Source: Armatimonadota bacterium
Lineage (GTDB): Bacteria > Armatimonadota > SYMT01
Length of the DNA stretch: 30,234 nt
Assembly: GCA_046292385.1 (NCBI GenBank)
Contig: JBKBRF010000066.1
Coordinates: forward strand, 1 to 30,234
Reading direction: 5' to 3'
How positions within the stretch are numbered: position 1 is the stretch's first letter; every line of letters begins with the position of its first letter. Below are positions 18,001 to 21,000 of the stretch, one piece after another. The position numbers were made by a program.

Positions 18001-21000
18001 AGCACCATCGGGTAGCCGTTCCCGTTCTCGCACTGGTCCGCCAGCACCCCGTGCAGCCGCCCCAGGAGCGCTTCGTTCTGCCAGACCCAGCCCGGCACCT
18101 CCACGCGAGCGATCTCGGTGCCGGTATTCAGGTAGAAGAAGCCGGCGGCGTCGTTCCCGCCGGTGAGCTGCTCCCAGTCTTCCGACTTCAGCTCCAGCAC
18201 CTGCGTGCGGTAGTACCGCTCCGGTATCAGCCGCTCCGCTACGTGCACGTCGGTCAGGCCGGCCAGCCCGGCGTGGTGAGCGTCCGGATTCGGCGCCGCG
18301 TACCGGCTCAGGAAGTCTTTCTTGCACTTTGCGCAAAGCGCGCCTCGGACCGGCACGTCCGGGCAGAGGCTCAGGCGGAGCAGCGTGATCCAGGCGACGG
18401 CCCGGGAGCGGCTGATGTACCCCGCCACCAGCGTCTGCTTCCGGTGGCACGCCTCCAGCAAGTCCTGAAAGAGATCGAGTAAGAAGCGGGCATCGGGTCG
18501 CTCTCGCAGCTCCTGGATCATCCGCCACTGGACCAGCGGCCCGTCGAGCAGCAGCACCGTGCGGCCGGGATCCGCCTCCTCGCGCACCAGGTCGCGCGCG
18601 CACGCCAGCTCCGCTTCCAGCCGGTCCAGCTCCACCCTCCCGGTCACCGAGGCCGCGGAGGCGCGGGCATCCGCCTCCCGGTCCGGCTCGGCGGCGGCGC
18701 GCTTCGGCGGCAGGAGGCGCGGCACGGAGAGGAGCCGGCACCGGTCTCGCCCCTCCGGGGCGCCGTAGCGCAGCACCACCCCACCCGCGTTCACCACGTA
18801 CCAGGGCGCTACGTGGTGGTAGTCCGGCACGACCTGGGAGCCGTCGGTCGCGATGACGGTGTAGTCCCCGGCCGGCGGCGCGGGATAGGTCTCCCGCATG
18901 TCCCGCCCCTCGGCGGGCAGTGCCATGCTCTGACGGAGCTCCTGGACGGCCTCCCGCAGGCGCGGCATCCCCGCGGCCTCGGCGACCTGCTCCACGGCCT
19001 GCTGCTGACGGTCGAGCGTGTCCTGCGCGCTGCGCACCACCTCTTCCGCCAGTCCATGCATCTCCCCAACCAGGGCTTCCAGGTCCAGCACGCCGTTTGC
19101 TCCCCCGGCAATGATACTTCAGCCCGGAGTAGCGGGCAAACTTACGCGCGAACATTCAGACGCGACGAAGGGCAGGCGGTGCCGTTCCCGGCTCCGCCTG
19201 CCCTGCTGCAGGCTCCGGATTCAGGCGCGGCCCGCGGAAGCGGCGGAATCGGCCGCGGCGCGCTCCGTCTCGCCGTCCGCCGGGGCGGGGTCGAGCTCGT
19301 CCGCGGGGTAGCTCTCGATGTCGAAGGCGCCCTCGAGCTGGACCAGCCGGAGCGTCCGCTCGGCGCGGCAGCCTTCCCGAACCGCCAGGCGCAAGCCGAT
19401 GCCGCGCGCTGCCAGCCGTGCCTGAAGCCGCATGAGCCACCGGATGCCGTCGCTGTCCACGTAGTCTGCCGGACCGAGGTCGAGGCAGAGGCTGCGGCAG
19501 CCGCCGCGGAGCAGCCGCGCCACGCGCTCCTCGAAGTGAGGAATCGTCTCGCGGTTGACGGCGCCGACCAGCCGCGCGAACGCGGTGGCGCCGTCCCGGT
19601 AGGCAAGAGCTGTGGGCATTTCGTGCTGCGGCATGCTTGGCTCCTTACTGTCTCTGGCCGGACACTCGCTGCATGTATAGCGGCAGCGGTGTCGCTTCAA
19701 AACGCGGTCCCATTTCCACCTGCTCCGGAGCCCCCAGAAACCACGAAAAGCCACGACCTCTCGTCGTGGCTCGAAGAAAACCGGGCTGGCAGCAGGCGGA
19801 CGCGTCCGCGGAGCCGCAGCAAAGCTGCTCTTCGGCCACGCTTACGAGGTTAGCTGACGGGCTTGGGCTCGAAGATGCCCCGGACCTTCCGGTCCTGCGC
19901 CCCAGTCTGGTGGGTCCCCCGCTTCCCCGAAGGGAATTGAGCGTTAGTTTGTTGGAATGGTGTTCGACACCCGGGCGCCCGCCTCCTTCTCCAAGAGTCG
20001 ATCAGAGGGCGGATTTCCAGGCCCAGTCTACCAGCGATCCCCGGGGAGAACAAGCTCCTGGCGCGGGCTCCAGCGCTCCCCTACCAATCTTTAGCGGTCC
20101 CCTGCCAGAAAGTAAAGCAGGGGCAGCCGCAGCGCGGCCGCCCCTGATCTCCGTTCCCGTGCCACGGGGTCCGAAAGCTCTGTTACTGCTCGCGCGCCAC
20201 CGGCTCGCCGCCCTCGGCGGTCTCCTCGCCGGAAGCATCCTCGGTCGCCGGCTCTTCGGCAGCCGGCACTTCCGCGACCGGAGCTTCCGCGACCGGCTCC
20301 TCGGCAGTCACGTCTTCGGCGGCCTCCGCCTGCTCGGCCGGGGTCTCCTCCGTCGCCGCCTCGGCCGGGGCTTCCTCGGTTACCGCCGCGGCATCGACCG
20401 CGCCGGACTCATCCTGGGCCACCGCCGCGGTTTCGCCTGCCGTCGCTTCCGCCGTCACTTCGCCCGCTACCGCCGTCGCGCCGTCCGCGGCCTTCTCTTC
20501 GGCCGGCTCGGTGGCGGCAGCCTGCGGCTGCTCTTCCGGCTCCGGCTGGTACTCCTCGAAGAGATGCCCGAACAGGTCGCCCAGCGTGGTGCGGTCGCTG
20601 CGGCTGGAGCGGCGCTGGTAGTTCTCCACCACCTGGCGCTCGCGGCGCTGCTCCAGCTTTCGCATGCTGAAGACGATCTTCCGCTCGCGCGGGCGGATGT
20701 CGATGACGGTCGCCTCGACCTCCTGGCCGAGATGGACCACTTCCTCGACGTTGTTCACCCGCTGGTTGCCCAGCTCGCTGATCGGCATCCAGCCTTCCAG
20801 GCCTTCGGAGACTTCCACCTCCACGCCTTTCGCGTCGAGCTTGGACACCTTCACCGTGTGCAGGCTGCCTACCGCGTACTTGCGGCGGGCCTCCTCCAGC
20901 GGGTCGGTCATCGTCTGCCGCATGGAGAGGGAGACGCGTCCCGCGTCCGGATCGACGCGCAGCACCTTCACCGGGATCTTCTGGCCCACCTTGAGCACGT

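Follow-up and report, generated by a model that had tools for sequence, protein, structure and literature searches.

The stretch of DNA analysed here, called the window, comprises 30,234 nucleotides of contig C66 from the genome of a member of the Armatimonadota. In the direction of transcription, its minus strand carries rpsA for ribosomal protein S1 (21688-20183, three Pfam S1 matches), a strong rpsA terminator found by terminator scan (20146-20118), a c-di-AMP riboswitch aptamer of family RF00379 (19824-19953), a spacer hairpin leading from aptamer to terminator (19772-19834, RNAfold -30.7 kcal/mol), an intrinsic terminator (19735-19771) and a gene for a STAS-only protein of 137 amino acids (19221-19634, stop codon included). 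Genes for a NurA nuclease, a 243-amino-acid protein, a HerA-type ATPase and an SbcD/Mre11-type phosphoesterase follow on the same strand. The order rpsA, riboswitch, STAS is also present in two metagenome loci (L226, L227). Contigs from three RNA libraries match three short pieces of 18800-20200 with 100% or near-100% identity: X20 spans the terminator on the leader (19653-19802), X19 lies on the 3' half of the STAS gene (19214-19415) and X16 on NurA (18824-19066). They give a weak hint of expression of leader, STAS and NurA, and may derive from contaminating DNA.

The aptamer was detected by cmscan with 80.0 bits (E 2.7e-17) against a gathering score of 38, and the match covers model positions 1-134 of 134. 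It is one of three RF00379 copies in the genome (88.8, 80.0 and 79.7 bits), and the places and scores given for them in an earlier note on this DNA were reproduced. The core was defined as those columns which are conserved to at least 90% among 54 other Armatimonadota aptamers (n=35); the core of 20 STAS-linked aptamers keeps 34 of these 35 columns. On this ground, the idea that STAS-linked aptamers have a changed ligand specificity was rejected. As judged from sequence, the c-di-AMP riboswitch in front of the STAS gene is confirmed as real, with an intact, full-length aptamer. Concerning the start of the leader transcript, a sigma-70-type scan of 18900-20300 revealed no promoter in the interval from the rpsA terminator to the aptamer, and conserved hexamers were absent when the sequences separating rpsA from the aptamer were aligned for the window, L226, L227, L223 and the related genome G035. 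A candidate picked by eye near 20052-20024, TTGTTC-17-TAGACT, fails the criteria of the scan and is not relied on.

A hairpin (-18.2 kcal/mol) and a U-run make up the intrinsic terminator. Its stem pairs 19770-19763 with 19757-19750 (8-9 pairs) around the loop GAGAG, and the tail after the stem reads UUUUCGUGGUUUCUG (19749-19735). The U-run is interrupted, and a simple, stricter consensus scan misses the terminator. The unconstrained minimum free energy fold of the whole leader does not contain the terminator hairpin; 19855-19846 pair instead with 19749-19760, and 19840-19835 with 19765-19770. In the ligand-free fold, both sides of the spacer hairpin are lengthened into an antiterminator. When the aptamer is held apart in folding, the terminator hairpin forms. 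The aptamer tail CGUGGC at 19840-19835 is complementary to the terminator arm GCCACG at 19770-19765, and this design (GCCACG..CGUGGC plus U) is found in 10 of the 12 terminator-bearing STAS leaders. Antiterminator pairing in the leaders of families f1 and f2 was equalled by at most 10 of 200 shuffles in eight of nine cases; in three f3 leaders it was not better than in shuffles. Because the 3' strands of the aptamer are able to pair with the terminator arms, the arrangement corresponds to a classical OFF switch, in line with the previous description of a STAS-only gene behind an OFF-type terminator. It is very probable that the riboswitch controls STAS by termination.

The pairing of riboswitch and STAS gene is not confined to the window. 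STAS is the next same-strand gene in 18 of 72 riboswitch loci from other Armatimonadota, where it is the commonest target class; these loci belong to 15 of 42 riboswitch-bearing genomes and to seven GTDB families (f1, f2, f3, f6, f11, f22, f28). STAS matches number 22 in the 7.0 Mb of the own genome, yet two of its three riboswitches precede STAS. With so few STAS genes, these counts are more than expected by chance. The earlier note had counted 13 of 27 loci in five families, and the larger sample bears out the recurrence. Its wording that the link is conserved across Armatimonadota was too broad, since STAS is not among the targets in family f10 (12 of 12 genomes with riboswitches) or in f15. 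At the second own locus, on C1, g00210 is a STAS gene as had been stated; the preceding gene, g00209, which had been counted as STAS too, is a 75-amino-acid ORF without Pfam match. Four f1 genomes (G005, G021, G048, G086) have STAS behind every riboswitch found. For the C66 STAS itself, the best eight tblastn matches in 151 genomes all have the aptamer upstream, as do eight of nine metagenome relatives. The remaining one, L223, is the closest (59% identity) and has no aptamer and a 151-nt spacer, possibly with a remnant; the link can thus be lost. In a cross-phylum sample, STAS was the target in 0 of 80 riboswitch loci. Targets there were of the classical kinds, namely K_trans (8), AA_permease_2 (13), TrkH, KdpD, GT20, NlpC/P60 and M23, whereas K_trans, TrkH and AA_permease targets are missing from the 72 Armatimonadota loci, four of which have NlpC/P60.

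These data also bear on an incidental adjacency, in which the aptamer would be a relic or serve the rpsA transcript and STAS would be expressed independently. The relative L223 and the missing promoter between rpsA terminator and aptamer would fit such an arrangement. However, the aptamer is intact, the stretch separating it from STAS holds a matched terminator and antiterminator, rpsA ends in its own strong terminator, and the pairing is met in four STAS clades and eight of nine metagenome relatives, with none in the cross-phylum sample. We consider a merely incidental adjacency hardly credible.

Past the STAS stop codon lies a GC-rich hairpin (19170-19203, minus strand; -35 kcal/mol for 19225-19165) without a proper U-run; G035 likewise has a hairpin at this position. 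The promoter-like site TTGCCC-17-TATCAT before NurA (19111-19139, minus strand) is the sole sigma-70-like match of the promoter scan in 18900-20300 (shuffle mean 0.0), and a block resembling it, AAGTTTGCACGC..GGTATAAC, is present at the equivalent position in G035. The genes behind it are NurA (17856-19091; Pfam NurA, 76.1 bits), the gene for the 243-amino-acid protein (16936-17667; no Pfam or NCBIfam match), the HerA-type ATPase gene (15320-16939; Pfam DUF87/HerA, 113.8 bits; NCBIfam HerA models match partially only) and, as last gene of the same-strand cluster, the SbcD/Mre11-type phosphoesterase gene (Metallophos; 14048-15316; TIGR00619 sbcd, 110 bits, cut-off 77.65). The NurA, HerA and SbcD/Mre11-type profiles are all above cut-off, which agrees with the earlier gene assignments, as does the same STAS-NurA order in G035, where a 212-amino-acid ORF holds the position of the 243-amino-acid protein. 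SbcD is not followed by a Rad50/SbcC gene; the gene beyond it (11389-13659) is on the opposite strand and convergent. An ATP-dependent DNA ligase gene is located near the cluster.

This neighbourhood raises the question of whether the riboswitch governs the whole unit of STAS, NurA, the 243-amino-acid protein, HerA and SbcD, so that c-di-AMP sets the level of DNA-end processing with STAS as an accessory. The five-gene order behind a riboswitch is found in another genus as well (G035, L085), and three f22 genomes (L094-L096) have genes for an SbcD/Mre11-like protein and then a Rad50/SMC-like ATPase directly behind the riboswitch. The lack of a real U-run after STAS and the DNA ligase gene close by speak for it too, as does the established connection of c-di-AMP with DNA integrity via DisA (PMC5575661). 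We nevertheless hold a regulated five-gene unit to be improbable. The promoter-like site separates STAS from NurA; close STAS relatives precede G6PD, GGT, FtsH or a convergent gene; the C66 SbcD shares only 25% identity with the f22 phosphoesterase and so is not its orthologue; and the genome has no DisA. Its single DAC gene is of the CdaA type and adjoins the YbbR/CdaR gene on C46, as had been noted before. Over all loci, STAS is followed by NurA, G6PD, GGT, FtsH, MscS, NAGPA or a convergent gene. This variability, together with the conserved promoter-like site of NurA, identifies STAS as the regulated unit. NurA-HerA-SbcD is most likely under its own promoter, and the separate transcript that had been suggested from the hairpin after STAS gains from the promoter-like site.

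The genes around STAS in other loci were inspected for partners. Two kinds of conserved small ORFs without family match lie ahead of STAS in many loci. A complex prediction for a C66-type STAS with the preceding conserved small ORF (residues 78-141) gave a score of 0.00, which is no answer, neither for nor against. A conserved partner gene behind STAS was rejected as a candidate, the ORFs after the STAS genes of C1 and G035:C3 being mutually unrelated and without family match. Twenty riboswitch-linked STAS genes were examined, and none of them adjoins a gene for an RsbW-type kinase, PP2C phosphatase, anti-sigma or sigma factor (searched as HATPase_c_2, SpoIIE and sigma domains). Elsewhere, the genome encodes one canonical STAS-RsbW-sigma operon, with the RsbW gene at C1:35779-36228, a STAS-kinase fusion that adjoins a PP2C phosphatase gene, and three orphan RsbW-like kinases without a STAS partner in cis, at C4:231487-232041, C49:46543-47163 and C26:85024-85755.

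The STAS gene of C66 has a Shine-Dalgarno sequence AAGGAG at 19646-19641, most likely starts at the ATG at 19634 and ends with the stop codon 19223-19221. Its product matches Pfam STAS_2 (PF13466, 39.2 bits, cut-off 29.2) and STAS (PF01740, 34.4 bits, cut-off 22.6). The AF2 model (pLDDT 88.8) has a STAS fold. Foldseek ranks 1-11 are all anti-sigma factor antagonists (E 4.5e-6 to 6.4e-5; TM (target) 0.69-0.83), and the top structural matches include 4qtp, 1vc1, SpoIIAA 1th8_B, RsfB 8ih8 and RsbV 6m36; SiaC 7e6g (E 5.7e-3), MlaB and SLC26 STAS domains follow with weaker E-values. Ser61 lies within the motif YVDSDGIRW and is, in the model, the first residue of helix 61-76 (DSDG). We take it to be the position of the phospho-Ser of SpoIIAA. 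Like SpoIIAA and RsbV, whose fold it shares, the protein is a single STAS domain of roughly 110 residues in which a D-S-x-G serine starts the second helix. It differs from them in missing the cut-off of TIGR00377, the NCBIfam model for anti-sigma-factor antagonists (25.1 bits, cut-off 53.45), in being encoded apart from kinase and sigma factor genes, and in an invariant Arg, mostly followed by Trp, after the glycine. Moreover, regulation would reach beyond phosphorylation to its amount, through an RNA that senses a second messenger.

Riboswitch-linked STAS genes split into four STAS clades. The C66-type subfamily is small, has the motif DLGxAxYxDSDG-x-RWL with an invariant Ser61, and is riboswitch-linked almost without exception; the own genome's 20 other STAS genes all fall outside the f1/f2 clade. 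The f1/f2 and f22/f6 clades share an invariant G-x-R-W/L motif C-terminal of the Ser position. At the phosphorylation site itself, the f22/f6 clade has Thr (ETPG) and the f11/f28 clade neither Ser nor Thr, so that two of four clades lack Ser. The phosphorylatable Ser that had been noted for the C66 and C1 proteins is present in C66 and not in all clades. TIGR00377 is passed by the C1 paralogue (58.8 bits) and the representative of the f3 clade (75.3), which sits among canonical RsbV-like proteins, and failed by the f22 (42.6) and f11 (27.1) representatives.

The earlier note had called the STAS protein an anti-sigma-factor antagonist that feeds into sigma-factor control. With the TIGR00377 cut-off missed and kinase, PP2C and sigma genes absent in cis at all 20 genes, this claim was not upheld. 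The chances that STAS acts by partner switching appear evenly balanced, and a sigma factor as its output is a tentative proposal, somewhat doubtful on present evidence. STAS may instead be riboswitch-controlled and act on a target other than a sigma factor, for example an enzyme (of second-messenger metabolism or otherwise), a channel or a transporter. There are precedents for STAS proteins without sigma output, namely SiaC acting on the cyclase SiaD and the STAS domains of SulP transporters and MlaB. Such a target agrees with the TIGR00377 score, with the subfamily's own G-x-R-W/L motif, with the absence of anti-sigma and sigma genes in cis, with the family-less small ORFs before STAS and with the weaker Foldseek matches to SiaC, MlaB and SLC26. 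At some loci STAS also lies ahead of osmotic genes, a 995-amino-acid MscS and a Na/H exchanger (L076). On the other hand, the best structural matches are single-domain anti-sigma antagonists throughout, Ser61 is at the canonical site, orphan RsbW-like kinases are available, and the f3 clade groups with RsbV-like proteins. We therefore regard a non-sigma target as rather unlikely.

According to PMC7266159 and PMC5575661, known targets of c-di-AMP riboswitches are effector genes, namely those for cell-wall enzymes, osmolyte systems and the transport of potassium and amino acids. In the Bacillus subtilis ydaO/kimA and ktrAB leaders (RF00379), as described in PMC5575661, the ligand favours an intrinsic terminator and makes a genetic OFF switch. 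The C66 leader shares this aptamer family and the ligand-OFF terminator logic; its target, unlike theirs, is a soluble single-domain signalling protein and not a transporter, wall-enzyme or osmolyte gene. Actinobacteria have c-di-AMP riboswitches before cell-wall hydrolase genes, e.g. that of a Corynebacterium glutamicum peptidase (PMC9960051). C66 has in common with it the riboswitch class and a lineage-specific target outside the Firmicutes, but this target is a presumed regulator, which would place the switch one level higher in the cascade. The dauA motif RNA of Streptomyces is a riboswitch candidate of unknown ligand before a STAS-protein gene, with a proposed OFF switch by sequestration of the Shine-Dalgarno sequence (PMC11109978). 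As in C66, a structured RNA and proposed OFF switch precedes a STAS-protein gene; in contrast to C66, the class is unrelated, the mechanism is Shine-Dalgarno sequestration and the phylum is another one, and c-di-AMP is not mentioned in that paper. In the SiaABCD system of Pseudomonas aeruginosa, the diguanylate cyclase SiaD is switched on by SiaC, a STAS-like protein (PMC7647112). C66 STAS resembles SiaC, with a weak structural match (E 5.7e-3), as a STAS-fold, presumed partner-switching protein tied to second-messenger signalling; SiaC, however, controls messenger synthesis, whereas synthesis of C66 STAS would be controlled by the messenger. No report of a link between c-di-AMP riboswitches and STAS was found in the literature; the primary ydaO surveys (Nelson 2013, Block 2010), which possibly list STAS, lay outside the scope of this search. 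The recurrence of the pairing through much of the Armatimonadota suggests an unreported route by which c-di-AMP enters partner-switching networks.

Taken as a whole, the observations are best explained by a riboswitch that acts as an OFF switch on transcription of a signalling-protein gene, with partner-switching output, an explanation to which we give slightly better than even chances. With c-di-AMP bound, the aptamer (19953-19824) would keep its 3' strands, and the hairpin 19771-19749 would form before the U-run, so that RNA polymerase would halt ahead of the STAS gene. Without c-di-AMP, 19855-19846 and 19840-19835 would pair with both terminator arms and transcription would continue into STAS (19634-19221). 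The STAS dose would hence rise when c-di-AMP is low. Low c-di-AMP accompanies potassium shortage or osmotic upshift. STAS, like SpoIIAA or RsbV, would then bind a partner encoded elsewhere, an orphan RsbW-type kinase being the obvious candidate, and would relay the c-di-AMP state to its output, which may be a sigma factor or something else. It is predicted that STAS mRNA goes up as c-di-AMP falls, and that STAS binds one of the few orphan RsbW-like kinases.

A broader reading, which we think rather unlikely to hold, is that the Armatimonadota have rewired their c-di-AMP riboswitch regulon off ion and osmolyte transporters. A dedicated subfamily of DSDG-x-RW STAS proteins, its dose set directly by c-di-AMP, would be the commonest output, and double-strand-break nucleases (SbcD/Rad50-like pairs in f22, the STAS-NurA-HerA-SbcD neighbourhood in f1) would have come under the same riboswitch class in parallel. 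Were this true, c-di-AMP would feed into partner switching that acts on a sigma factor or other effector, and would link both stress transcription and the repair of DNA ends to the osmotic or desiccation state, with no part for DisA. The OFF switch in front of STAS, if true, would place an RNA that senses a second messenger atop a protein signalling cascade and form a new kind of connection between two well-studied regulatory systems. It would also open a way to the function of an orphan STAS subfamily and to the physiology of a phylum that has been little studied.

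A single Rfam family is detected by cmscan in the window, the c-di-AMP (ydaO) riboswitch RF00379 (19824-19953, minus strand, 80.0 bits against a gathering score of 38, E 2.7e-17), whose aptamer covers the model end to end. The genome of 7.04 Mb in 91 contigs holds three RF00379 aptamers, at the places and with the scores reported in the earlier note. Upstream of the window aptamer lies rpsA (21688-20183, minus strand, three S1 domains by Pfam), which ends in a strong terminator at 20146-20118 on the same strand, according to a terminator scan. All elements behind the aptamer are likewise on the minus strand. 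The first is a 63-nt spacer hairpin (19834-19772, -30.7 kcal/mol), followed by a terminator hairpin (stem 19770-19763 / 19757-19750, -18.2 kcal/mol) with UUUUCGUGGUUUCUG, some 100 nt of remaining leader, the Shine-Dalgarno sequence AAGGAG (19646-19641) and the STAS ORF of 137 codons (ATG at 19634, end at 19221; Pfam STAS_2 and STAS above cut-offs). Sequence and folds thus agree with the order described before, an aptamer, a hairpin plus U-run and then the STAS gene g05504. The consensus terminator scan does not list the window terminator, whose U-run is interrupted, and neither a promoter scan nor an alignment revealed a nameable leader promoter. Three RNA-library runs from two studies contain short contigs identical or near-identical to the window, covering the leader across the terminator (run X20, 19653-19802), the 3' half of the STAS gene (X19, 19214-19415) and NurA (X16, 18824-19066). 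These contigs carry no strand, end or level information and may stem from DNA carry-over; they hint weakly at transcription and terminator read-through at this locus.

The whole-leader fold was used as a stand-in for the ligand-free state. Here the aptamer 3' strands 19855-19846 and 19840-19835 (CGUGGC) pair with 19749-19760 and 19765-19770 (GCCACG), respectively, so that the terminator hairpin is absent. With the aptamer folded separately, the RNA behind it forms the spacer hairpin and the terminator hairpin. In B. subtilis ydaO the bound state is the terminator, according to passages of PMC5575661. Judged from sequence, the regulatory mechanism at the window leader is well supported and follows the terminator/antiterminator layout usual for OFF riboswitches. 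A U-run hairpin is located 42-119 nt behind the aptamer in 12 of 20 STAS-linked leaders, ten of these 12 with GCCACG in the 5' arm of the terminator. In eight of nine leaders of the GTDB families f1 and f2, no more than 10 of 200 shuffles of the aptamer tail paired as well with the terminator arm as the real tail; in the three f3 leaders the real tail was not better than shuffled ones. Aptamer and start codon are 2-8 nt apart in f22 and f6, which makes translational control more likely in these families.

The pairing of riboswitch and STAS gene, proposed earlier to recur in the phylum, is confirmed and strengthened. RF00379 was found in 42 of 150 further Armatimonadota genomes searched, with 72 matches, one of them under the cut-off; at all 72 loci, same-strand ORFs starting within 1 kb downstream were tested with Pfam and a purpose-built STAS HMM. 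STAS is the next downstream gene in 18 of the 72 loci, from 15 genomes and seven families (f1, f2, f3, f6, f11, f22, f28), with a small ORF intervening in five of the 18; four of the 72, where the sequence continues for 7-511 nt behind the aptamer, were judged incompletely. STAS is the commonest target class, ahead of Octopine_DH (7), DapB (6), IGPD (5), NlpC/P60 (4), Metallophos (3), NAGPA, Methyltransf and ferredoxin (2 each) and MscS, MFS and radical SAM (1 each), the remaining targets being without family match. The genome of the window has 22 STAS matches in total, which puts the chance of a STAS gene as random neighbour at well under 1%. Genomes that are related do not count as independent, but the riboswitch-linked STAS genes split into four distinct clades (SH-aLRT 94-99), and not one of the 20 other STAS genes of this genome falls inside the f1/f2 clade. 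The Armatimonadota target set is unusual overall; all five IGPD/hisB targets belong to f10. In f10 and f34 the first ORF behind the aptamer encodes a small protein without Pfam match, of two recurring types (about 117-130 aa in L005, L022, L048 and L068; 89-92 aa in L031, L047 and L072), with motifs such as ..GDWERANRFR.. and MSFVSQIMRKASIVERSD...

Searching from the protein side, the eight best matches of the window STAS in 151 genomes (E ≤2.5e-16, 40-100% identity) are all located behind an aptamer. Among nine relatives on metagenome contigs (42-60% identity), eight are preceded at a distance of 228-774 nt by RF00379 on their own strand (79.6-95.3 bits), one of these, L230, probably being the same record as genome G048. 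The closest metagenome relative, L223 (59% identity), has a spacer of 151 nt and no aptamer upstream of STAS even at E 10. In this spacer (L223:405-557) GTTGAAG is repeated four times and a short segment is similar to the aptamer 3' end, which looks like a loss of the riboswitch by deletion. One 151-nt DNA contig (run X2) connects 19091 with 20117 across 29 other letters, a form without riboswitch and STAS between rpsA and NurA; because its sides span only 22-26 nt, less than 30 nt, the contig may stem from another organism.

Many relatives share an ORF without family match between riboswitch terminator and STAS (L224:303-725, L225:383-718, L229:124-678, L230:859-1230, L231:803-1324, L084:397-813, L077:391-783). 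It carries the C-terminal motif ..RE.RE.E....PV.NFG....WSGGGDW, and neither tblastn nor an HMM finds a match for it in the genome of the window. A second, acidic kind of 75-76 aa is found in contig C1 of this genome (L001:1765-1989) and in genome G035 (L087:486-713, contig C11). These two are 38% identical, share the C-terminus ..W.LEL....G.VVRVL.AE, precede a DSTG-type STAS gene and overlap its start. By family search g00209, earlier counted as STAS, is this acidic ORF and not a STAS protein.

Both the window and G035, which is from another genus of f1, have behind STAS, in this order, NurA, an ORF of unknown kind, HerA and an SbcD-type phosphoesterase, in keeping with the earlier account of NurA in both and HerA and SbcD in the window. 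The hairpin noted before behind g05504 is present; it is GC-rich and lacks a U-run, as does its counterpart in G035, and transcription running on from STAS into NurA is possible. The same gap holds a similar promoter-like block in both, in the window TTGCCC-17-TATCAT, the sole such site in 1.4 kb scanned. In near relatives of the window STAS, what comes next is G6PD, GGT, FtsH or a gene in convergent orientation; L226 and L227 retain the order rpsA-riboswitch-STAS. Since the genes behind STAS vary and NurA is preceded by its own promoter-like block, the STAS gene is the predicted conserved target of the riboswitch.

The surroundings have a DNA-repair flavour, with an ATP-dependent DNA ligase gene divergent from rpsA (21815-23632, plus strand, 353 bits to NF002868) and a 756-aa protein with Lon_C protease as its only domain, convergent to SbcD (11389-13659, plus strand), besides NurA-HerA-SbcD. 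At three f22 loci (L094, G125:C18; L095, G034:C60; L096, G060:C15) the riboswitch directly precedes an SbcD/Mre11-like phosphoesterase, followed by a Rad50/SbcC-like ATPase of 707-827 aa (AAA_27/AAA_23/SMC_N); the passages of the reviews PMC7266159 and PMC5575661 name no target of DNA-repair type. A gene for a reverse transcriptase/maturase of a group II intron (L090:411-1841; G001:C101) lies on the opposite strand just behind a riboswitch-linked STAS.

The confident AF2 model of the window STAS (pLDDT 88.8) adopts the STAS fold, with Ser61 of DSDG at the first position of helix 61-76, and Foldseek ranks solved structures of anti-sigma-factor antagonists highest (4qtp, TM1442, SpoIIAA with SpoIIAB, RsfB, RsbV). 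Fold and serine thus favour the antagonist identity put forward in the earlier note. However, the protein scores 25.1 bits with the antagonist model TIGR00377, below the cut-off of 53.45, and no kinase, phosphatase or sigma gene is found in cis to riboswitch-linked STAS. Two further features count against antagonist membership, namely just six near homologues in an index of 5.8 billion proteins and an invariant Arg and mostly Trp behind the glycine in STAS of the window type. Elsewhere the genome does encode components for partner switching. They comprise three orphan RsbW-like kinases, an operon of canonical STAS-RsbW-sigma type and a fusion of STAS and RsbW-type HATPase_c_2 kinase in one protein of 267 aa (C84:2957-3757; L221:2878-3678), near which, two genes upstream, a response-regulator PP2C (SpoIIE) phosphatase is encoded. 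DisA is absent from the genome; c-di-AMP synthesis is possible because CdaA and CdaR are present.

All phyla were sampled by an exact 17-mer of the aptamer core, which occurs in 13 of 20 STAS-linked aptamers. At least 120 matches resulted; 80 loci were examined, all holding an aptamer by nhmmer and two labelled as Armatimonadota. STAS was downstream in none of these 80, a small sample with a few short flanks (Pfam, 103 ORFs, E 1e-6; own HMM, 437 frames, E 0.01). Their targets are classical: AA_permease_2 (13), K_trans (8), TrkH, KdpD, OpuA-like ABC-CBS, GT20, SPFH, NlpC/P60 and M23. No K_trans, TrkH or AA_permease target is present among the 72 Armatimonadota loci. Contexts named in passages of PMC7266159 and PMC5575661 are transporters, cell wall, osmotic stress and sporulation. 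A full-text literature search, whose scope did not extend to the primary ydaO surveys, where an earlier mention is possible, returned no paper tying the c-di-AMP riboswitch to STAS or partner switching. The lineage-specific coupling of c-di-AMP riboswitches to STAS genes appears to be new; its downstream effect may be a tie to DNA-end repair or, as can reasonably be supposed, control of a sigma factor through STAS dose.
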